Assembly: GCA_965219095.1 (NCBI GenBank)
Contig: CBDCMT010000001.1
Coordinates: forward strand, 2,272,001 to 2,336,000
Direction: 5' to 3'
Origin: Bdellovibrionales bacterium
Lineage (GTDB): Bacteria; Bdellovibrionota; Bdellovibrionia; Bdellovibrionales; UBA1609
Length of the DNA stretch: 64,000 nt
Part shown: piece by piece, positions 15,423-34,951 of the stretch
Layout: the number at the start of each line of letters is the position of its first letter
Position numbering within the stretch: position 1 is the stretch's first letter
The notes under the pieces: generated by a model
What the model was told of the DNA's origin: nothing
The model's input: the letters and a program-made list of their open reading frames with translations, nothing else
Database searches by the model: none
Translations under genes and position numbers: made by a program

Positions 15423-15932
15423 TAAAAACTGTCCACTTTTTTGGGGGAAGTTCAGAGGTCATTCATGTTGATGAGACCTCTATGAGGGTTAAGGGTAAAA
15501 ACTACTGGATTCATACTTATAGTTCAGGAGAATTAGTCTTGCAGTTTCTCCACCTTTCAGGTGGAAGGGAAGCCATAAAAGATATTGGTCTCTTGGATAG
15601 ATATGGAGGAGTGCTTGTGCATGATTGTTGGAGTCCTTACTTTTGTTATGATAAGATAACTCATGCTTTGTGTGTGGCTCACCTTTTGAGAGAGCTTAAA
15701 TTTATAGAAGAAAGCAATGGATTCAAATGGGCTACAAATCTCAAAAAACTTCTTAAAGAGACTGTGGAGTTAGTTCATAAAAAAGAGTCAAGAGTTCTGA
15801 CTCAAAAAGAGTACGAAACTCTTCAGAGAAGGTATCCTGAAATCTGTTAATTTTGGTACTAGGTTTCAGGACTAAGAGCCTGTTTTTTTTCAACAGAATA
15901 CTCCTGATAAATCATAAGAACGAGTTAATTTA

Positions 15933-18748
15933 GTCGAACGTGAAAAATGCACAAACAGCTAAAAACACTTGTTTTTTTGTAATTTTTGCATAAAAATAAT
16001 TGCAAGGAAGTGGAAAAACAGATAAAAAACCTTGCAAAACAGAAAGGAAAAAAGATGAGGCCAAAAGACATGTTCAGCACACAAAAGAGAAGCCCTCTTA
16101 ATTTTAGAGTAAACGACATTGTTCATAAGAAGCATCCGCTTGTCATTTTAGCTAATAAAATAGACTGGGATCGTTTTGATAAAGATTTTGGTTCGAAGTA
16201 TGATGAAAAAAAAGGTCGTCCAGGTCTTTCAACTCGTTTAATGGTGGGACTTCAGTGCTTGAAATACATTTATAATTTAAGTGACGAGAAGACAATAGAA
16301 ATGTTCAAAGAGAGTCCTCAATGGCAGTATTTTTGTGGTCAGCCTTTTTATTCTTATGAAGATCCCTGTGATAGAAGTTCATTGACTAACTGGAGAAAGA
16401 GGATGGGGGCTGAGAAGATAGAAGTTCTCTTAGAGGAAACCATTGATTTAGCTTTGAGAGAGGGTTTTGTAAAAAAAAAAGAGTTTGAGAATGTAGTTGT
16501 TGATACAACTGTTCAAGAGAAAGCAATAGCTTTTCCTACAGACAGCCGTCTTTATTACAAAGCTTTAAAGACTTTAGTTCACAGGGCTAAAAAAGAGGGT
16601 TTAGTTTTACGTCAAAGCTATAAAAGAAAGGCCAAGGAGTGTTTGTTTAAGAATGCTCGTTATGCTCATACAAGAAAAATACGTTTAGCAAGAAAACTGA
16701 TCTTCCCCCAAAAAAGTGGACAGTTTTTATGTTCTTAAAGCCCTCCTTTGTTTAAATTCTTTTGGGCTCATGTATTTCAAGGAAGAATGCATTCTTACCT
16801 TGTTATACCAATCCATGTAAATTGCAATTTTTTTTTCCAACTCTTCCTTTGTTGTACAGTCTTTGTATTCCAGTTCATCCTTCAACGTATGGAAAAAGCT
16901 CTCCACAAACGCATTATCATAACAATTTCCTTTCCTAGACATAGATTGCTTGAGGCCAAAGAATTTCAATTCTTTTCTAAACCCTTCACAACAATATTGA
17001 ACCCCTTGATCCGAGTGGATTATCAAGCCCTCTAAGTTCCCAGAAACAGATTGGACTGCGGCTCTCAGAGCCTGTTTTGAATGAACCCCGTCCAAGCTCT
17101 CACAGAGCTTCCAAGACTTAATCTCTCGATTATAGACATCTAAAAATACAACCAAATACAGAAATTTATCTCTAAAAGGAATATAGGTTAAATCCGAACA
17201 CCATACCTGGTTTTCTTTTCCTGCTTGGCTCTGTCCTGTCTTAAACAACCGAGGAGACTTAATCATGAGAGGGTTATTCTTTGTTGTTCTAGGAACATAG
17301 GGTTTTTTCTGACGGGCACTGAGATTCTTTAGTTTCATAATTCGAGCTACTTTGTTTTCTCCAGCACTCACTCCGCAACGCTTTAATTCCCTATACACCC
17401 TGGGGGAACCATAACAGCCTTTATTTTTTTTAAAAATAGATTCTATGTTTTTCTCCAGATTTTTATCCTTTTCAAGCTTTCCCCTGGTTTTTAAAAAACT
17501 ATAAAAACCAGAACGAGATCCTCTTAATAATTCGCAAATGCGAAGCACTGGATGCCCTTTCTCTTTTACATAAAACATAGCCTTAAATCTCATTTCAGGA
17601 TTTCCTTTGAAAAAAAAGCCGCTGCCTCTTTCAATATACCTACACTCCGCCTCTCATAGACCAGCTCCTTTTTTAACCTCTTTATTTCCTCCAATGCCGA
17701 AGCCAAGTCATGGGAAGCTTGTCTTTCTACTTCAGGCTTTAGAAAACGCTTCCAAGAGCTTATCACTTGGAAATTTCTCAGTCCTAGCTTCTCTGAGGCT
17801 TCCTTTGCACCTATTTCCTCTGCCAATTCAATGGCTTGCTTTTTAAACTCTTCCGAGTACTGTTTTACTTTTTCCATTCTTTCTTTTACCTCCATTTTAT
17901 GGAGACTTTAAGAGAAAATTGACTGTCCGCAGAAACAGGGGAAGTTCAAACAGCAAAGAAAGCTTCATACTTATCTAGGTCGTGTGATAAGAGATGTTAC
18001 AAGAAAAGGAGGTCCTAAGTTCTTGGAAGAGAATACATCTTTAAAAAGATGTTTATCTTTATGTGTAAGAATTTATAACCAAAAAAGAGGGGATAAGAAC
18101 AAGGTGTATAGTGTTCATGCTCCTGAGGTTTATTGCATAGGGAAGGGCAAAGCCCATAAAAAATATGAATTTGGCAATAAGGTGAGTGTGGCAACTTCAT
18201 CAAAAAAATGCTGGGTTTTAGGGGTAAAGTCATTTGAAAAAAATGTATCAGATGTTCACAGTTTAAAGCCAGCCTTATCTCAAGTTGAATCCTTAACAAA
18301 GGTTAAGGCAAAAAATTTGTATGTAGATAAAGGTTATCGTGGCAAAGAGCATCATCCTTCGGGAGTTAATGTTCATATTGGGGGAATGAGTAAAACATTA
18401 AGTCCCTACAAAAGAAAACTTCACAGAAGAAGAAGTTCAGTTGAGGCAATCATTGGTCATATGAAAATAGATTCTCGTATGGGAAGGAACTTTTTATTAG
18501 GATCACAAGGGGATGCTATTAATAGTCTTTTATCAGGAGTTTCTCAAAATTTTAGAAAGTTAATGCTAGAGGTGCGTCTTTTTTCGTTTTTTTCACTGAA
18601 ATGGCTTAAAAGGCCTGTACGCCTTCTTGAAAACTACTGTTTTGTTTAAGTTATGAAAAAATATTTAACCCTCTATAGTAGAAAGTAACAGGAATAAAGA
18701 TCATACAGCATAAAAATCCTAGGCTTTTGTCAATTTTTCACGTTCGAC
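15933..18748 (+). mobile_element. IS5-family element; transposase split by IS3 (~16056-16697 and 17952-18649)
   Basis: IRs GTCGAACGTGAAAAA; TAATTTA duplicated on both flanks; VDTTVQEK, KGKAHKKYEFG and VDKGYRG motifs. Confidence 0.9.
16698..17948 (-). mobile_element. IS3-family element, apparently intact (orfA 17590-17895, orfB 16727-17593)
   Basis: TG...CA ends with IRs; 3-bp TSD AAC; WCSDLTY, HSDQGVQY and DNAFVESFF DDE motifs. Confidence 0.95.
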
Positions 18749-19474
18749 TAATTTAGTCTCATTGAGTTTTTTTGGAGAACTTATAACACACTGTTTTTAT
18801 AGGCCTTTTTAAAGCTATATTTTTCATAGGTGCTGTTTTTGGATTGAAATTTGATCCTGTCGTTAAGAGTTTTGAGCCATCAACAGGGAGTTGACAAAGC
18901 CCCTAAGACATAGTTCAATTTGAACTATGTCTTATAGGTATGAAGAGAAAAGAAATGGAAGCATCTATGTATATGAGATAAGCAGTTACTGGGACAAAGA
19001 AAAAAAACAATCTCGTCAGAGAAGAGTTTATTTGGGCAAGAAGAATCAATCTACGGGGAGGCTTGAAGCCAAGTTGAACAAACATCCTATAGGTTCTGTA
19101 GGTGTTGGGGGGGTGCATCTTTTGCGAGAGATCAGCAAGCAATTAAATTTAGTGAAGGTGTTAAAGAAAGTTTTTCCGAAAGAATATGAGAAGGTTCTTT
19201 ATTTGTCTTTTTTTAAAAGGAATACGATTTAGATTTGAAGTGTTTTGTTTTAGATAAAGGGTTTTACAGCCAAGAAAACATAAAAGATTTAAACAGGGAG
19301 GCTTCATCGTACATCGTCCCTATGAGCTTTAGTACGAGTCTATCCCATGCTTTATTGGGATCTGTGAGTAAGGAGCTTGATTCAATTCCCTCTTCGTTTG
19401 TATTCCGTGGTCAAGTTTATTCTTACTGCAGACGAGAAATTAAAATTGGAAAGACTCGTTGTATGGCTCATATA

Positions 19475-22143
19475 TAGTGCTTCCGTTTAGGTTTTCAGGT
19501 TCCTAAGATGGAGAAGTTATCAGTTATCAAAGTTTCTAATTTAGATCTGTGTTTTCGTATTCCTCTAAAAAATTGACTTAAACTTCCCTTGAAATCGTCA
19601 TAGTTTTCATAATATCGATTCGCCGTGACCTCTTTTTTCATAAACTTCCAAAGTCTTTCTATAGGATTTAAATTCGGTGAGTACGGAGGAAGATAAACAA
19701 GTTTTATATTCAACTCTTTCGCTAACTTCTTGACAGACTTCGATCTATTGTATCCGTCCCCATCTAAGATAAGATGAATCTCTTTTTCATCGGGATGCTT
19801 CTTGCGAATATGATGGAGCATATCACATATGGAAACATGGTTAACTGTCTTATAACTCCTGACTACCGTCTTCAAACTATTGATCTCAATAGCTCCACAA
19901 ACATTCACTCTTTTTCTCCAGCCTGAATTGGTCTTCACTTCAAACTTCTTACCCTCTCTTATCCAACCATATGAAATCGTAGGGCCCCACTCAGGATGTG
20001 TGGAATCAGCAAAGTAAACAGGACCGTCTTTCTTCTTAATTCTCTTGTATTTACGCACAAACTTTTTCTGCTCTTCTCTCTTTGCCTTACCCGGTATCGC
20101 TGTGGCTTTTTTATAAGAAAAACCAAGGCGATGGAGAAGATCAATTACACCACTTGTTGAGTACGTAACACCAAAATTCTCCTCAATGAACTGAATAACG
20201 GTCTGTGATGATGGAAAAATTCTTTTCTCTAATTCCTTTAAAAGCATTTTCTCCTCTTTCTTAGTTAAAAAGGACCTTTTAGGGTTGTAATTGTCGTTGA
20301 TTAAGCACTCTATCCCGCCTTTGTTATAACGATCTCTACAGGCTCTTATCGTGCCCTCATCAATGAAAAGAAAACGGGAAATATCTTTACACAACTCACC
20401 TTTATCTAAATGGAGAATTGTCATAATCCTTTTTCCGTACCTAAGATTTCTGGCTCCTCCCGGGAATCTGTGGGTGAAAAGTAGCTAGAAATCCCCCAAA
20501 AGAGCTCATATTAATCAAAGCAAGAGTAAGACATTCTATCTTGTATTTTTGAGTTCTTTGAGGCCCTTACTGGCCTCTATCACCTCCGGTGATTGAACTC
20601 AAAAACATTCATTTTATTTGCTTTTATTTGTTGTGTTACATTAAAATTTTAAAAAAGAAGCACCTACTTCCCAGATGCCTTAAAATGTTATTCAAAAAAA
20701 AAAAAAAAAAAGGAGGGAAGAGATGCTTTTGAAGACTATACTAAATGATTGTTTAAGATGGAAGTCTTTTGTATACGGAGACATTTATTTTTCAAAAGAT
20801 AGAAAGTCAATTAATGTTCCTATTAAGGCTCGTAAAAATGGCCAAGCTTTTTGTAGTGTTTGTAAGAAGCCCTGTTCAGTGTATGACAGCAGTAAATCAT
20901 CACGGGACTTTGAATCCCTTCCTATTTTAAGTTACAGGGTGTTTTTTGTTTATTTTGTAAGAAGAGTTAATTGTCCTTGCTGTGGGGTAAAAGTTGAGTA
21001 TTTACCTTGGGCCGATGGTAAGAAGAGTTTAACGATCTTTTACATGAAGTATTTAGCAGACTGGTGTCGTCACCTGTCTTGGAAAGAGGTTTCTTGTAAG
21101 TTTCAGGTCAGTTGGAATCAGGTCTATGCTTCGGTAGAATGGGTCGTAGAATATGGTTTAAAACAAAGGGTTTTAAAGGGAATACAAGCTATAGGTGTAG
21201 ATGAAATACAATGGAAAAAGAACCATCAGTATCTCACCTTAGTCTATGAAATAAGCAAAGAAAGTGTTCGTTTGCTATGGATAGGAGAAAAAAGAACAGA
21301 GGAGAGTTTCAACAAGTTTTTTGATTTACTAGGAGAGAAGTCAAAAGATATACAGTTTGTGTGTTCTGATATGTGGAAGCCCTATTTAAAAGTAATAAAG
21401 GAAAGGGCAAGTCAAGCTTTGAATATATTAGATCGGTTTCATATCGTAGCAAGACTCAATAAGGCTTTAGACGAAGTGAGAGCTTCAGAACACAAAAAAA
21501 TGAAAGAAGACGGGTATGAACCCCTTTTAACAAAAGCTAGATGGCCCTTGTTAAAAAATGCAGAAAATTTAAAATCTTATGAAAAAGTAAAATTAAGGCA
21601 TTTAATACAGTACAATTTAAAAAGTATCCGCTGTTATTTTTTAAAAGAAGACTTCCGACAGTTATGGACCTATGTTTCACCAACTTGGGCTGGTAAATTT
21701 ATAGACAGTTGGACGAGACGAGTCATGCTTTCAAAAATTGAACCTATGAAAAGAGAAGCAAAAACCATACGAAGACATAAGCTACTTATTCTTAATTACT
21801 TCAAGGCTAAAAAAGCCTTCTCCTCAGGGATTGTAGAGGGTTTAAACAACAAAGTAAAACTCACTATGAGAAAATCTTACGGCTTTAGAACCTCTAAAGC
21901 TATAAAAATCGCCTTATATCATAACCTTGGAAAACTGCCAGAACCTCCGGGAACCCACAGATTCTTTTGAGGAGGCAGATTTCTTTCTAAAGATAGTTCA
22001 TAGAGTAAATCTTTTCGCTCTTTTTTTGATAGAAACCCTGACATATGAAACTATTTTTAAAAATAAATGACTTTTTATCAAGGCCTTAGAATAAAAACTA
22101 GACCTCAACTCAAAAAAAACGGAAAACCTAAGCGGAAGCACTA
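19475..22143 (-). mobile_element. IS630 type A, interrupted by ISL3
   Basis: IRs TAGTGCTTCCG(T/C)TTAGGTTTTC; TA duplication; YFADSTHP and LPPYSPNLNPIERLW motifs in ORF 19495-20424. Confidence 0.93.
20452..21976 (+). mobile_element. ISL3-family element, complete (transposase 20723-21970)
   Basis: Ends GGCTCCTCC / TGAGGAGGC; 8-bp TSD AGATTTCT; zinc finger CSVC...CPCC plus DDE domain. Confidence 0.96.
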
Positions 22144-23300
22144 TATATTTGGATGAAAAGAGAAGGGTGTCTAAAAAAAATGAAATGCTATTGAAGTTGG
22201 ATTGTTTTGAGCGAAGATTTTCTAAGAAGAAATTTAGGACAAAGAAAGAGTGCGATGAGTGCATAGCAGAAACCTTAAAAAGTGCCAAGAAGCGCTTTAC
22301 AGTTGTCAAGAAAAAGGGAAGTTTTTTTATTTCGAAAGATTTGGATTATATTAAAAAGCAGATGCGAAAAATGGGTGTGTTGATTTTACTTACCGATTGC
22401 GATCAAAAGCTTTCAAAAGATGAGATCTTAGGGTTATATAGAAACAAAGATAGCATTGAAAAGATTTTTTTGTCTTTCAAGCATGATATAAATGAAAAGC
22501 GAGCGAGGACTCATTCGCTACAAACCATGAGAGGAAGTTTATTTATTAACTTTATAGCTTTAATTTTAATCTCTCACATAAACAATGTGATGAAAGAAAA
22601 GAATCTGTACAAGAAATTTTCAAAAACAGAGGTCTATAAAATTTTAGACAAATTAAAGTTCTATAAATTAGCCACAGGACAAACAAGATTAGGAGAGTTG
22701 TCCGGTAAGCAAAAGAGCCTTTATAAAGCTTTTAATGTGACTCAAGAAATCCCACACAGCTTTAAGTTGTAAAATCCCCTCCGACTAATGCGAAGCATTA
22801 CGAGGGCCGAATAAAAACCTAGTACCAAAATTAACAGATTTCAGGAAGGTATAGGAGTATTCTTACAAAAGGCTTAAAAGAGCTTCCAGAATTTCCTAAG
22901 AAAAATGGCAAGAAAGGACGAATAAAGCATACACAAGCTCAAAACCTTTGGCTGCGATTTAAAAAGTATGAAGCAGAAATACTGTGTTTTGCTAAAAGAA
23001 AGAACGTAGATCCTACTAATAACAGAGCTGAAAGAGATCTAAGAATGACTAAGGTGAAAAAGAAAGTGTCAGGGTGTTTCAGAACAGAACGAAAACTGAC
23101 AGACAGTTTTTTATCAACCCAGAAAGGGTAACTGTCAGATCATATAACGTCTATTACAACTTACGAGAGTGAGCAGTTACGGGTATTCTTCTTTAGAAGC
23201 CATCTCTATGGCTTTAAATAAAAACTTACGAGAGTGAGCAGTTACAAAGAAAGAACGTAGATCCTACTAATAACAGAACAGAGCTGAAAGAGATCTAAGA

Positions 23301-26009: not shown

Positions 26010-27653
26010 TTAAACTACAGCTTCTTCAATTAAGTTTTTTGTTTGTAAGTCTTTGTTTTTTAACCTCTCAATATTTTCTAAAAGTTCTTTATTATGTGAT
26101 GAAATTTCTAAAAGTTCTACAGCTAAAAGCCAATGATCTTTGTATGTTTCTAAATGTGTTTTCAGAACATGGTGATAGTCTTCAAAAGAAAAGAAGTTAT
26201 TTTTTTGTTTTTGCAAACGCAAATCTCTTAAAACTTTGAAAGCTTCATTAAGCGTGCTTGAGGTTCTAGGCTTAATAGGAATTTCTACGGGTTTAAAAGA
26301 ATCAGATGAAGTTGAAAGGTCTAATTGGTAGCTTGTACCTCCCATGACAGAGGGGATGTGACAGCCCGCAAGAGCTAAATCAAAAAGACCCCACTTAGGA
26401 CGAAAAAGAAACTCATTTTGATAAGTAAGACTAGCATTTTCAAAAGTAAGAAGAATAGGGTTGTTGTTTTTGGATAAGACATTTTTTAATAAACCTTTGA
26501 TCTGAACTCCTGAGGCATAATTAAGTTGTGTAAATTCCCCTAATTTTAATTCTCCTGTTCTTTCACCTAGTGGTGTGCTATAGCCTTCTTTGTGAAAATC
26601 CATACCATGTCCTTCTAAAGGTTCTCCTTGATAGGATAACTTACAAGGGCCTTCAAACTTTAAGAAAATAGGTTTTTTTCTTTTACAAAATTTTATATCA
26701 GTTAATTGACCTGAAATCTCTAAACCACTATCCAATTCGACAGTGTTTTTTGTTTGAGAACGGAGAGCTTCTTTGAGTCCTTTATTTCCTCCTACTTTAA
26801 AAGACATCTGAGCTTCCATTTCATAAAGAACTTCATTTAAATGCAAAAAATCATGTGCAATAAAAAGTTGAGGTTGCGGTCTTGTGATATCGTAGCTGTA
26901 CTGAAGACAGTTTTTGGTTAAGGGAATTTTTTTAGGTTTTGAAAGACAGTATTTTGATTCTTCTAAGGACGAAAGCAGGCCTGCACCAAAAATACGAGGA
27001 GGACTGCCAATCAGTCCGTATTCAACAGTCCACCAGTTCATGCGAGACAAAAAACTTGCTTCTGATGTATAACGTTGAGAGGCTTCAATTTTTTTTAAAC
27101 GCCTTTCACTGTCTTTGATCTCATCTTTAGTAGCCTTAGGGTTTTCTTTCAAATCACTAAGGCGACGGATTATGATATAAGCCTCTAGATCCTCTTTTGC
27201 AAAAATAGATTTTACGGCTATCTCTCCATAGTTTTTCAAATACTGAGAAAAATCGGCATTCACTAACATAGGAGCATGTCCTGCAGCTTCATGAATGATA
27301 TCAGGAGCAGGAGTGTACAAAATATGTTCAAGGCTTCTAAGCTCTCTTGCAATAGGTAAAATTCCAAGAGATTGGAATTCCATAAACACCATAGGAGGGA
27401 TAAAACCGCTGATAGGAATCGCCCTCCAGCCTAATAAAGAAAGTTTGTGATCCATTTCCTCTATTTTAGGAATTTTATCGATAGTGACTCCGGTTTTGTC
27501 TAAACCTTCAAGATAAGAAGAATGGGCTTGGTGTTTGAGAAAAGCTTTTAGGTTCCTCATAACGTAACGCCAAAGAGAATGATCTTCTTCTGTATAAAGG
27601 TTGTGCTTTTGTTCAAAAACATAAGGTTTTAAGTGCTCTGGTATAAAGTCCAT
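26010..27653 (-). CDS. phhA: Biopterin-dependent aromatic amino acid hydroxylase (long-form phenylalanine 4-hydroxylase)
   Basis: YTPAPDIIHEAAGHAPML, WWTVEYGL and GAGLLSS motifs, with a C-terminal extension. Confidence 0.88.
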   Translation of the reverse strand: MDFIPEHLKPYVFEQKHNLYTEEDHSLWRYVMRNLKAFLKHQAHSSYLEGLDKTGVTIDKIPKIEEMDHKLSLLGWRAIPISGFIPPMVFMEFQSLGILPIARELRSLEHILYTPAPDIIHEAAGHAPMLVNADFSQYLKNYGEIAVKSIFAKEDLEAYIIIRRLSDLKENPKATKDEIKDSERRLKKIEASQRYTSEASFLSRMNWWTVEYGLIGSPPRIFGAGLLSSLEESKYCLSKPKKIPLTKNCLQYSYDITRPQPQLFIAHDFLHLNEVLYEMEAQMSFKVGGNKGLKEALRSQTKNTVELDSGLEISGQLTDIKFCKRKKPIFLKFEGPCKLSYQGEPLEGHGMDFHKEGYSTPLGERTGELKLGEFTQLNYASGVQIKGLLKNVLSKNNNPILLTFENASLTYQNEFLFRPKWGLFDLALAGCHIPSVMGGTSYQLDLSTSSDSFKPVEIPIKPRTSSTLNEAFKVLRDLRLQKQKNNFFSFEDYHHVLKTHLETYKDHWLLAVELLEISSHNKELLENIERLKNKDLQTKNLIEEAVV

Positions 27654-29519: not shown

Positions 29520-30017
29520 TTGTTTTTTGTTTTGTTATTTTTATTTACTGTTTTACCGGCTATAGAGCTGATTGTGCTTTTCAATCTAAGTCAGGTTATG
29601 GGGTTTTTTAACACTATACTTCTTATCTTATTCACAGGTATTGTGGGAGTGTTTTTTGTGAGACAACAAGGGCTTGAATTTTATTTAAAACTAAGATCTT
29701 CTTTGATTTCAGGAAAAGATCCAGGAGAAGCTTTGTTAAATGGGTTTTTTATCCTTCTAGGAGGAGTGTTGTTGATCACTCCAGGTTTGATTACAGACCT
29801 TTGGGGCTTTTTTATGTTGATGGAGTTTTCACGAAACTTTTTTGTTTATCTTTTTAAGAAGATAATAAAAGAGAAAATCAAAAAAGAAGGAGTTAAGGTT
29901 TATACTCATAACATTTCTTTTGATCATAATTTTGATTCCTTTCAAAACCATGCTGATGAAGAGGAAAGAAGTTCCCATAACATTATTGATTTAAATGAAA
30001 GAAAAAACTCTGATTGA
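29520..30017 (+). CDS. fxsA: FxsA family membrane protein
   Basis: P.IEL, QG and GGVLLITPGLITD motifs. Confidence 0.9.
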   Translation: MFFVLLFLFTVLPAIELIVLFNLSQVMGFFNTILLILFTGIVGVFFVRQQGLEFYLKLRSSLISGKDPGEALLNGFFILLGGVLLITPGLITDLWGFFMLMEFSRNFFVYLFKKIIKEKIKKEGVKVYTHNISFDHNFDSFQNHADEEERSSHNIIDLNERKNSD

Positions 30018-30209
30018 CCTTTTAGTTGATGATAGTAAGAACGTAATAAACATAAGAAGCTAAAGAAACAGAACCGAGAGTTAAGCTTACCATCTTTTTT
30101 TCAATGAATTTGTTAGCAATTAAAATGGAAAAAATAAAAAGCAAAGTGCTGAAAGCAAGCCAAATCAAGTCATAATATAACAAGGGGTTTTTAAGAATAA
30201 AAGCTTTCT
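29970..30209. repeat. 240-bp direct repeat, copy 1 (target duplication of IS1634)
   Basis: Matches 33964-34203 except one substitution I could see; abuts the IS IR exactly. Confidence 0.95.
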
Positions 30210-31224
30210 CCTGACTTCGACACAACACACTGCAACAAGTGAATAATTTCAAATAGTTACAATTTTTGGGGCCACAGGAAAGGGTTTTTTAAAGGTCGAC
30301 AGATGTTGTGGGAATGAGGCTCATAGAAGAGTTTCTTTTAAGCGAAAAAGCACTATAAATTTCTTCTACTTCCTTTGTACAACCTGAGGGAAGGCGATAA
30401 AGTTTTTTCGTCTTTTTTTCTTCTAAAATACTGTACTGATCTCTTTTTAAGATCTTTCTCATTCTTTCAAAGCTTAAATTAAGTCCTGCTTGTTTGAGTT
30501 TATAAACCATTGTGTAAGAGATCGCATAGGCTAAAAAACAAATGGCAATGTGAGTTTCTATTCTTCTTTTTTTCCAATGATAAACAGGCCTCATCTTTAA
30601 CGTCGTCTTATTCACTCTAAAAGCCTCTTCTATTCTCCAAAGACTTCTGTAACGACTTAAAAGCTCACTGGCTGTCTTGTTTTGAACATTTGTTATAATT
30701 CCATGAAGACCGTCCCACAAAGCTTCTTTTTCCATTTTCTCCTCATCTATGGTCACTTTCACATCGTCAACTTTAATAAAACGTTTGGTTCCATGATTGG
30801 AGATCAACTGACTCACAGGAATCTCCTTGTTTCTTACTTTCTTCATCAAACGATTGATCAAACGCTCTCTTTGATTTTGATCTCTTTTGGCTCTTTTGTT
30901 TGAATAACTGACTATCAATCTTTTTCCTTCATGCTCTAGCTCTTTCACCCAAAAAAGATGAGACGTATCACAAGCCACTTGGGTGGGCTTATAGTTTTTA
31001 TAACTTAAAACCTCTTCTTTTTTCTTGCTAGAAAGGGATTTTAACTTTGCAGCCACAACATACTCTATCCCCATCTTATCCATAGTCTCTAAATTCTTTC
31101 TTACAAACATAGCTCTATCAGCTACTAAAACAGCTCTTCTTACATTAAAACGAGTCTTTAGCTTATTTATAGATTCTACCAGTGTAGCCCCCTCACTTGT
31201 ATTGCCCGGAAAAAGTTCATAGCT

Positions 31225-31524
31225 TATTTGAAATAAAATAATCTGTAAGGATCTCCTCCCTCAAGAGTACAGTCAACAGCTCTCACTTCGTTTTCATTTA
31301 CAAAAACCTTACAAGTTAATTTTAGTATTGACTCATTTTCTTTTCCGGGAAGCCCTATAAAAATTTCTACTCCAGCGTCTCCTCTAGGACCTAAAAAAGG
31401 GCCGATAACTGTACATTTATTATTATTCATAGAGGTCAAACCCTTATTTTTCTGTTTATCCATTTTCAAGTTTCTCATCTTCAATATCTGTATTGACTTG
31501 AATCCAAAGTGGTAAATGATCTGA
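31225..31524 (-). other. 300-bp foreign insert: 3' end of an EEP-nuclease-like gene and 5' end of a following gene
   Basis: Removing it restores the transposase frame HPM-SYELFPGNTSE; it encodes SDHLPLWIQVNTDIEDEKLENG* and then MNNNKCTVIGPFLG... Confidence 0.75.
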
Positions 31525-32029
31525 CATAGGATGCCCTTGTGAGTTTGTCATAAGTGCCAAAACAACCTGTGTCTCTTTAAATTTACAATCTTTACTAAAA
31601 CCAAACCTGCGAATCTCATCCTCTGAAAAGCTCTCAAAATACAAGGTCGTCACATCATAAAGCAAAACATCCACCTCATGGTTAAACAAAGACAAGGTGT
31701 TCTCAGATACCTTTTTCTTCGAGGTCTCAATAAAAGGATAAAAACGATCCATAGCCCTATAAACTTTCTCTAAAGGAATCTGTCGGTTAAAATCTTCAAA
31801 AAGTGTTTCTACACTACCTCTTTTTGATTCTGGATTAAAAACTCTTGATAAAACACAGTGCTTTAAAATATCATTCCACTCTAAATCTTTCTTTGTACCC
31901 TCAATCAAATTTCCAAAACCTAACTCAGCATAAAGCTCATTAAAAACTTTCTCAATACCACAAACAACACGCTTTTTCTCCTCTAAAATACTGCCTGAAA
32001 ACTGGAAATCTTTCTCACTCTTTTTTTTC

Positions 32030-33548
32030 GGCTCCTCCCGGAAATCTGTGGGTGAAAAGTAGTAGAAATCCCCCAAAAGAGCTCATATTAATCAAAGTAA
32101 GAGTAAGACATCCTATCTTGTATTTTTGAGTTCTTTGAGGCCCTTACTGGCCTCTATCACCTCCGGTGATTGAACTCAAAAACATTCATTTTATTTGCTT
32201 TTATTTGTTGTGTTACATTAAAATTTTAAAAAAGAAGCACCTACTTCCCAGATGCCTTAAAATGTTATTCAAAAAAAAAAAAAGGAGGGAAGAGATGCTT
32301 TTGAAGACTATACTAAATGATTGTTTAAGATGGAAGTCTTTTGTATACGGAGACATTTATTTTTCAAAAGATAGAAAGTCAATTAATGTTCCTATTAAGG
32401 CTCGTAAAAATGGCCAAGCTTTTTGTAGTGTTTGTAAGAAGCCCTGTTCAGTGTATGACAGCAGTAAATCATCACGGGACTTTGAATCCCTTCCTATTTT
32501 AAGTTACAGGGTATTTTTTGTTTATTTTGTAAGAAGAGTTAATTGTCCTTGCTGTGGGGTAAAAGTTGAGTATTTACCTTGGGCCGATGGTAAGAAGAGT
32601 TTAACGATCTTTTACATGAAGTATTTAGCAGACTGGTGTCGTCACCTGTCTTGGAAAGAGGTTTCTTGTAAGTTTCATGTCAGTTGGAATCAGGTCTATG
32701 CTTCGGTAGAATGGGTCGTAGAATATGGTTTAAAACAAAGGGTTTTAAAGGGAATACAAGCTATAGGTGTAGATGAAATACAATGGAAAAAGAACCATCA
32801 GTATCTCACCTTAGTCTATGAAATAAGCAAAGAAAGTGTTCGTTTGCTATGGATAGGAGAAAAAAGAACAGAAAAGAGTTTTAGAAAATTCTTTGATTTA
32901 CTAGGAGAGAAGTCAAAAGATATACGGTTTGTGTGTTCTGATATGTGGAAGCCTTATTTAAAAGTCATAAAGGAGAGGGCAAGTGGAGCTTTACACATAT
33001 TAGATCGGTTTCATATCGTAGCAAGACTCAATAAGGCTTTAGACGAAGTGAGAGCTTCAGAACACAAAAAAATGAAAGAAGATGGGTATGAACCCCTTTT
33101 AACAAAAGCTAGATGGCCCTTGTTAAAAAATGCAGAAAATTTAAAATCTTATGAGAAAGTAAAATTAAGGCATTTAATACAGTACAATTTAAAAAGTATC
33201 CGCTGTTATTTTTTAAAAGAAGACTTCCGACAGTTATGGACCTATGTTTCACCAACTTGGGCTGGTAAATTTATAGACAGTTGGACGAGACGAGTCATGC
33301 TTTCAAAAATTGAACCTATGAAAAGAGAAGCAAAAACCATACGAAGACATAAGCTACTTATTCTTAATTACTTCAAGGCTAAAAAAACCTTCTCCTCAGG
33401 GATTGTAGAGGGTTTAAACAACAAAGTAAAACTCACTATGAGAAAATCTTACGGCTTTAGAACCTCTAAAGCTATAAAAATCGCCTTATATCATAACCTT
33501 GGAAAACTGCCAGAACCTCCGGGAACCCACAGATTCTTTTGAGGAGGC
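32030..33548 (+). mobile_element. ISL3-family element, complete (transposase 32295-33542)
   Basis: Ends as at 20452; 8-bp TSD TTTTTTTC. Confidence 0.96.
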
Positions 33549-33963
33549 TTTTTTTCTTCTCTTTCTTCTTCTCCTTAGGCCTTCTACCATAAACTAGCTT
33601 CTCACAACCTGGAAGCACAGGATTTCTTTGATTCTTAATGTCTATGATCAACTCTTCTGCTAACTTCTTAGCTTTTTTAACTTCCTTATCGCTTGCAAAA
33701 ATACCCATAGAACGAATGGTCTTTTGTACGCACTTCCCCTTAAGCCAAACAGACTCTACAATCCGTACACTTTTTTTACCCTTAGACTTTGATGTTACTT
33801 TTACAAACATTCTTCAAAAAGGCTAAACAACTTTTGCAAACTTGTAAAATGGGCCGGGGCCACAGAACCAACCTAAAACCTGTGTATAACTCCTTTAACT
33901 AAAAGCTAGAGGTAAAAGAACGAAAATATTTTTTTTAACTCACTGTGTTGTGTCGAAGTCAGG

Positions 33964-34203
33964 AGTTCCCATAACATTATTGATTTAAATGAAAGAAAAA
34001 ACTCTGATTGACCTTTTAGTTGATGATAGTAAGAACGTAATAAACATAAGAAGCTAAAGAAACAGAACCAAGAGTTAAGCTTACCATCTTTTTTTCAATG
34101 AATTTGTTAGCAATTAAAATGGAAAAAATAAAAAGCAAAGTGCTGAAAGCAAGCCAAATCAAGTCATAATATAACAAGGGGTTTTTAAGAATAAAAGCTT
34201 TCT
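33964..34203. repeat. 240-bp direct repeat, copy 2
   Basis: Matches 29970-30209; begins immediately after the IS IR. Confidence 0.95.
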
Positions 34204-34951
34204 GAGATACTAAGGAGGCAAATGTTAAAATAATGCAAAGATTGAAAATATTGGAGCCAAAAATGTTGCCCAAAGCCATTTGCCCTTTCTTTTTTAAAAC
34301 AGCTAAAAGGGAAGTTACAAATTCAGGAAGCCCTGTACCTACGGCTAAAATGATAGCTCCAGAGACTCTATCAGGCCAATGAAAGAGTTTCCCTAGGCCT
34401 TGTGTGCCTTTAACGGTCATTTCAGATCCTATAAAAAGAAACAAAGAGGCTGTAAGAAAGATCACAAGGCTGAGTCCTATATGACAGGGGGGGGCTGAAT
34501 TTTGTGTTTCAGGTGAGTTTTTATACTGCTTTGCTATAAGATATAAAAACACACCTAATAAAAGCAAAAGAACAAAAGATTCAGGAAAGCTTAAAATTTG
34601 ATTGTAAAAGAAAGCTATGAATAAAATAAGGGATAGTAAGAGAAATAAAAGTTCATATAAGTAAGAGCCTTTGTTTCTTAGTCCAAAAAAAAACAACATT
34701 CCTCCGATTAAAAGAGAGTTAAATACATTCGAACCTACAACATTGCCAAAGGCTAGCCCTTCAGCCCCTTTCATTACAGATGTTATGGAAATTAAAAGCT
34801 CAGGAAGACTTGTCCCCAAAGCTAATAGGGATATGCCTGAAAATGTACTTGAGAGGTGAAAACGTTGAGACATAGAAAGAGAGGCCCTGATTAAGAACTC
34901 AGCTCCCAGAATCAAAAAAGTAAAACCACAAAATGTCAGTAAATAGCTCAA
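34016..34951 (-). CDS. Calcium/sodium antiporter (YrbG/CaCA family)
   Basis: Two alpha-repeats: GTSLPE...GNVVGSN and GTGLPE...GNIFGSN. Confidence 0.93.
   Translation of the reverse strand: MSYLLTFCGFTFLILGAEFLIRASLSMSQRFHLSSTFSGISLLALGTSLPELLISITSVMKGAEGLAFGNVVGSNVFNSLLIGGMLFFFGLRNKGSYLYELLFLLLSLILFIAFFYNQILSFPESFVLLLLLGVFLYLIAKQYKNSPETQNSAPPCHIGLSLVIFLTASLFLFIGSEMTVKGTQGLGKLFHWPDRVSGAIILAVGTGLPEFVTSLLAVLKKKGQMALGNIFGSNIFNLCIILTFASLVSQKAFILKNPLLYYDLIWLAFSTLLFIFSILIANKFIEKKMVSLTLGSVSLASYVYYVLTIIN

Follow-up and report, generated by a model that had tools for sequence, protein, structure and literature searches.

Insertion sequences (IS) of the IS1634 family are recognized by a length of 1,500-2,000 bp, a single open reading frame (ORF) and terminal inverted repeats beginning with C, and their usual target duplication measures 5-6 bp (PMC2266710). 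For two members, IS1634 of Mycoplasma mycoides and IS1549 of Mycobacterium smegmatis, much longer duplications that vary in length (8-514 bp) were reported, and that 2008 text states that there is no mechanistic model for them (PMC2266710). The same text lists a fixed duplication of 8-9 bp for the IS50 subgroup. Members of the IS4 family proper have the full YREK motif and duplicate 8-13 bp. Composite transposons are known among typical IS1634-family elements (PMC3281130). Here, we analyzed an IS1634 element that is flanked by a 240-bp direct repeat in the genome of a Bdellovibrionales bacterium (assembly GCA_965219095.1; 3.11 Mb in two contigs, 34% GC, ∼31% repeats). The closest transposase carriers likewise make a host from the Bdellovibrionota likely. 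The element lies in a stretch of 64,000 nucleotides (contig CBDCMT010000001.1, positions 2,272,001 to 2,336,000, forward strand), hereafter the window, to which the coordinates refer unless a genome or locus is named. A preliminary description of this DNA had stated that M. mycoides IS1634 is known for long variable repeats, in agreement with the published range. The locus is a real example of this known, still unexplained behavior, which is ordinary for elements of the IS1549/IS1634 type. The additions made here are 61 pooled duplication lengths, a threefold extension of the length range, up to 1.7 kb, a target half-site at both cuts, and a split within the family tree. No paper on kilobase duplications, on a clade with long duplications, or on their mechanism was found in a literature search that left out most subscription journals and ISfinder.

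Anatomy of the Locus

The direct repeat occupies positions 29970-30209 and 33964-34203. The two copies differ by one substitution (G30076/A34070), which falls on a synonymous third position in the codon for Leu294 of the antiporter described below, and neither copy extends beyond these limits. Both abut a perfect 20-bp inverted repeat, the right end of the element at 30210-30229 (+ strand) and the left end, upstream of the transposase start, at 33944-33963 (− strand). The first base of the repeat is A and the last is T, as at nearly all sites of this element. The possibility that the flanking T/A belongs to the element was discarded, since both repeat copies agree in their first and last bases. 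On the left, fxsA (29520-30017, + strand, PF04186) is whole at 165 amino acids, with its last 15 codons and stop inside the repeat; on the right, the gene of a Na/Ca exchanger-family antiporter (34016-34951, − strand, PF01699) is whole at 311 amino acids. Next to the fxsA end, the left repeat copy holds a promoterless antiporter remnant of 61 codons (30022-30209, − strand), and the right copy holds the antiporter 3′ end together with a 15-codon fxsA remnant. The two stops are 4 bp apart in each copy. A promoter and terminator scan returned nothing usable. The preliminary description had reported the repeat with one substitution, its exact flanking of the element, breakpoints inside coding sequence on both sides and two intact convergent genes, and each of these observations was reproduced.

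The same description had treated the 3,754 bp between the repeats (30210-33963) as an IS1634. The family assignment held, and the element proved to be no plain IS. It is composed of a 1,927-bp IS1634 core, a nested ISL3 (32030-33548, + strand; transposase 32166-33542, PF01610; 8-bp duplication) and a 300-bp insert (31226-31525) that is single-copy in the genome. Because these two interrupt the core, the transposase gene (30289-33810, − strand) is broken into three pieces and the window copy is dead. The 300-bp insert has a 2-bp overlap at its ends and encodes an 86-amino acid ORF; this ORF had no Pfam match, and no element ends were recognized in the insert.

Family membership was assessed with the transposase pieces and with an intact transposase encoded elsewhere in the genome (P0001, 567 amino acids; contig C2, 20537-22473). 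They scored 313.8 bits (pieces combined) and 342 bits, respectively, on the family model NF033559, which has a cut-off of 100 bits. Intact copies of the element are 1,927-1,938 bp long with a single ORF of 565-567 amino acids and 20-bp ends, in accordance with the size, single ORF and C-starting inverted repeats of the family. The 5-6-bp duplication of typical members was not observed, the duplications in the host genome being 190-374 bp; long duplications that differ from copy to copy place the element with the IS1549/IS1634 type. P0001 does not belong to the IS4 family proper, as it reached 38 bits on that model, far below the cut-off of 115 bits, and its YREK motif is incomplete (Y445-x2-L448-W449, with Leu replacing the Arg of the motif). 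Residues Asp210, Asp289 and Glu452 are invariant among 36 homologues and, judging by their position, probably form the catalytic Asp-Asp-Glu (DDE) triad. A sequence search of the PDB gave no significant match. An AlphaFold2 model (predicted local distance difference test score 80) was closest in fold to the IS50/Tn5 transposase of the IS4 family (E value 1.6e-10, template modeling score ∼0.42-0.51), with which it has the DDE core with an insertion domain in common, whereas sequence identity to it is 11-12%.

Long Duplications in the Host Genome and in Relatives

The inverted repeat of the element occurs 45 times in its own genome, and the first base outside it is A in 44 cases. Six end pairs are flanked by long repeats, of 190, 194/203, 212, 240, 258 and 374 bp. 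The gene sdhB owes its intact end to the 374-bp repeat, and the 258-bp repeat contains a whole 74-codon gene. The 190-bp repeat sits in an IS630, and the corresponding stretch is single in each of 69 IS630 copies that carry no such insertion. Two findings had been named beforehand as telling against a target duplication, namely other copies with only short duplications and a repeat that predates the insertion; the other copies carry long ones, and the IS630 target is single where no element interrupts it. Because five other sites in the genome have repeats of 190-374 bp and this target is unduplicated in the 69 IS630 copies, the 240-bp repeat is very probably a real target duplication.

The 190-bp duplication, one in number, surrounds a 9.2-kb block (locus L001, 5292-14474; host genome G000, contig C2, 13291-22473) that is inserted in the IS630 and contains single-copy passenger genes; inverted IS1634 copies delimit it, with a right end on either side. 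The block is likely a composite transposon, which fits cut-and-paste movement; an intramolecular rearrangement is possible as an alternative. Two palindromic structures were seen elsewhere in the genome. One, an element of ∼180 bp, inserted later at a distance of 4 bp from where the right 258-bp repeat copy ends (locus L003, 4743-5000 and 8349-8790). The other, 78 bp long, consists of two left ends of the window element placed head to head (G000, contig C1, 74302-74379).

Relatives at 45-56% identity were examined at 78 loci, derived from the best 80 of 297 matches. Both ends were present at 62 of these loci, and five well-assembled genomes accounted for 54. Among these 54 copies, 39 were flanked by near-perfect repeats of 41-1,701 bp, altered long repeats (470 and 964 bp) were found at two, a repeat of 330-435 bp common to another copy at seven, and no repeat at six; a copy with only a short duplication was not encountered among the 54. 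One of the other eight two-ended copies had 111 bp, and most had insufficient flank. Flank swaps between copies were common in these relatives. A held-out set of 20 regions from seven further genomes contained 18 two-ended copies, none with a short duplication. Seven of the 18 had direct long repeats of 84-1,370 bp, and gapped or cross-copy matching yielded further repeats of 26, 441, 524, 800, 758 and ∼300 bp. On complete plasmids, duplications of 43-400 bp were present at 7/10 two-ended copies from Mycoplasmopsis, and others measured 45 bp (Mycobacterium), 33 bp (Persicobacter) and 680 bp (Aliarcobacter), next to 6 bp for ISAzo6 and for elements of Rhodoferax and Carnobacterium. A search for an empty site in relatives gave none: antiporter matches in 30 relatives, none of the same genus, were only ∼26-41% identical.

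When plasmid values and held-out cross-copy matches were left aside, 61 duplications could be pooled. Within a detectable range of up to ∼3 kb, their lengths extended from 32 to 1,701 bp with a median of 252 bp; 11 exceeded 514 bp, the upper limit for IS1634 and IS1549, and 5 exceeded 1 kb. A log-normal distribution fits the lengths. A weak 12-bp period was treated as chance among the many periods tried.

Two further features of the relatives were recorded. A relative element also occurs as two-ended miniatures of 155 bp (genome G055: contig C5, 251034-251188; C11, 399818-399972; C13, 305471-305625). Few copies lie close to dnaA in genomes G175 and G202, with none in the first fifth (G175) or the first third (G202) of the way toward the terminus.

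Internal Comparison with Short-duplication Lineages

The window offers a comparison within one genome, as it contains a second IS1634 (15836-22845, + strand) with several nested ISs. Its 7-bp duplication, reported in the preliminary description, was confirmed, and its lineage has duplications of 6-7 bp at eight end pairs in the host genome. A comparison of the two transposases had also been suggested: both P0001 and P0122, the intact transposase of the second lineage, pass NF033559, and they align over 114 amino acids only, with 22% identity. The host genome harbors at least ten IS1634 lineages, of which three have long duplications (the window element and lineages with 90 and 32 bp) and seven have 6-7 bp. 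These seven lie across the transposase branch described below from the window element and count with typical IS1634 elements such as ISPfe2/Tn6097, ISGka5 and ISAzo6. Typical elements have the NCBIfam family, a size of ∼1.7-1.9 kb and ends starting with CC in common with the window element, and differ from it in their fixed 6-7-bp duplications.

Target Half-site and Transposase Phylogeny

The 46 sites examined provide 92 cuts. In 86 of these the duplicated stretch opens with A (42/45 at each end), and A was also favored at position +3 (59/92 cuts) and position +4 (63/92 cuts). This A-rich half-site is equally strong at both ends and faces inward. Since the same half-site is found at both ends, each cut looks chosen by the enzyme; this speaks against an insertion by one end that the host then repairs.

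In the transposase tree, 14 rows with long and 10 rows with short duplications fell on two sides of one branch (Shimodaira-Hasegawa-like approximate likelihood ratio test (SH-aLRT) support 95-99), and all 10 held-out rows were placed with or beside the long rows. The window element's transposase groups with those of the Mycoplasmopsis and Mycobacterium plasmid elements, which have duplications of 43-400 bp and lie on the same branch; this tree does not include the named IS1634 and IS1549 sequences. Neither clear ends nor a duplication could be made out for elements from Mesorhizobium, Acidiphilium, Gloeothece, Alicyclobacillus and A. cibarius, which were left unclassified. Five alignment columns are near-diagnostic for the long rows. 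Among them is Trp449 (P0001 numbering), just before the last catalytic Glu, present in 13/13 long rows and 0/10 short rows. This residue may be the equivalent of the Tn5 hairpin tryptophan, and it may be ancestral rather than causal. Val241, Ser361 and Lys416 are likewise specific to the branch.

Effect of Duplication Length on the Genes Hit

If two cuts are made far apart, a gene would be broken only when both fall inside it, so that long duplications would enlarge the harmless target space. In non-repeat DNA of the host, according to our own gene calls, an insertion breaks no ORF at ∼21% of positions with a 7-bp duplication, 41% with 240 bp and 82% with 1 kb. Both cuts lay in one ORF at 11/46 sites, compared with 24.3 expected for uniform and 22.3 for motif-weighted insertion (P = 5e-6 and 1e-4, respectively). 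Two sites in the host genome that lie inside other ISs were scored as spared in this count; scoring them as broken gives 13/46. The broken genes are hypothetical, accessory or transposase genes, and those cut once and restored include cysS, uvrD, folPK, sufB, ligA and glnA. The sparing is geometric and effective at any gene end, not at convergent pairs alone.

Mechanism of Insertion and Alternative Explanations

We consider it probable that the 240-bp repeat arose as the element's target duplication when its ends were joined at two separately chosen sites and the host synthesized the DNA between them. The transposase would attach one end to each strand, at A-rich sites separated by 240 bp, and host DNA synthesis would then copy the stretch between the joins. 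Excision may proceed by Tn5-like cut and paste, target capture may be uncoupled or looped, and fill-in could occur by strand displacement or a passing fork. The model is based on the continuous lengths of 32-1,701 bp, the same inward half-site at both cuts and the single transposase branch. In more general terms, the chances are about even that this branch of IS1634 elements, which crosses phyla, uses uncoupled strand transfers in which the ends pick their own A-rich half-sites up to 1.7 kb apart, a distinct mode of DDE integration. A fork-coupled insertion, in which the ends attack both sister duplexes or a lagging-strand gap behind the fork and resolution duplicates the stretch between, appears unlikely. 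Under this model, too, lengths should vary continuously and the two ends should have one half-site in common, and the upper lengths of 1.2-1.7 kb resemble the sizes of Okazaki fragments. An Acidiphilium IS1634 transposase is reported to bind the beta clamp (PMC4549789), but the Acidiphilium rows fall outside the long-duplication branch. Moreover, two single-contig genomes had no replichore orientation bias (14 versus 13), and the target deletions expected from such a model were not shown, though the 6/54 relative copies lacking a repeat could be such deletions. It is highly improbable that the element made an ordinary short duplication and that the long repeat is older than the insertion or came from later recombination between nearby copies. 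The repeat content of the genome and the flank swaps in relatives would favor such an origin; against it stand the absence of short-only copies among the 54 and 18 two-ended relatives, the exact abutment of the repeats on both ends and the single IS630 target. An assembly artefact is less credible still. Contigs were available from four public runs of one study, possibly including the source sample. In one run (X1), a 5,768-bp contig runs from fxsA into the antiporter across a single repeat copy and without the element, and the right junction is not spanned by any of the contigs listed. The contig of another run, however, passes from fxsA through the left repeat 28 bases into the element, the two repeat copies differ by one base, and the same anatomy is present in at least 13 other assemblies, complete plasmids included. 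The X1 contig may stem from an allele that is truly empty or has reverted, or from a collapsed assembly graph. Because the same run also contains the copy-specific 300-bp insert at depth 2, this contig was given little weight.

The preliminary description had left targeting and selection of survivors side by side as explanations for a harmless insertion. The harmless insertion was borne out, and of the two explanations selection is favored over targeting. A transposase that actively seeks convergent junctions or gene 3′ ends, for example via transcription-generated supercoiling, so that sparing is an evolved rule, is improbable. It would account for the convergent junctions at 16/35 non-breaking sites (9.9 expected, P = 0.012) and for a list of spared genes that includes sdhB in addition to those named above. 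However, an ORF is broken at 11 of the 46 sites, and only 3/6 long-duplication sites in the host genome are convergent. The short-duplication IS1634 of the same genome served as a control (49 sites, 30 inside other repeats and 19 outside). At the 19 sites, genes were broken in 8 cases versus 13.9 expected (P = 0.003), and 5/11 sites were convergent versus 2.8 expected (P = 0.08). An excess of ISs between convergent genes is also general and has been ascribed to selection (Plague 2010, PMC2942039). The present sites resemble that general bias in their excess between convergent genes and differ from it in two respects: their cuts fall within coding sequence, and it is the duplication that makes the gene ends whole again. 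Given that elements with short duplications follow the same trends and that the literature describes this bias for ISs at large, survival rather than targeting is the likelier cause of the gene sparing and of the convergent excess, and the convergent position of the window copy was most likely left by selection, not sought by the enzyme.

Several points weigh against insertion at two separately chosen sites followed by survivor selection. The mechanism is read from end products only. An exponential length distribution was not rejected (Kolmogorov-Smirnov test, P = 0.14), and helical phasing of the lengths was absent at 10.2-11 bp, where a tight protein-held loop might give a period of 10-11 bp. 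In the host genome, one end pair has 8 bp and three two-ended copies have no duplication, the remaining ends being unpaired. The convergent excess given above would fit weak targeting, and the gene-sparing test used a simple purpose-made ORF caller on reconstructed empty sites, with expectations from the local 7-8 kb. The tree was a quick IQ-TREE search of very divergent proteins with SH-aLRT and no bootstrap, and seven of its original rows are without a measured duplication.

The surrounding data restrict the mechanism to a pair of half-sites that are chosen independently and open it to experiment, as an intact transposase, a half-site rule and both long- and short-duplication lineages are available within one genome. 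If strand transfers are indeed uncoupled, each insertion would duplicate hundreds of bases to whole genes while often sparing the gene hit, and would be exactly reversible via recombination between the repeats. The larger share of harmless targets would aid persistence in gene-dense genomes and the duplication of small genes. IS-finding tools restricted to short duplications would overlook the boundaries of such elements.

Additional Observations

The host genome has 111 matches to NF033559, and its short-duplication lineages are also present as derivatives of 251, 478 and 579 bp. The second IS1634 of the window is split by nested IS5-like, IS3-like, IS630-like and ISL3 elements and is itself located inside an IS66-like transposase gene; these labels follow the appearance of the ORFs, with only ISL3 checked against Pfam. 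At 26010-27653, the window encodes a 547-amino acid biopterin-dependent aromatic amino acid hydroxylase that has a long C-terminal extension without a Pfam match.

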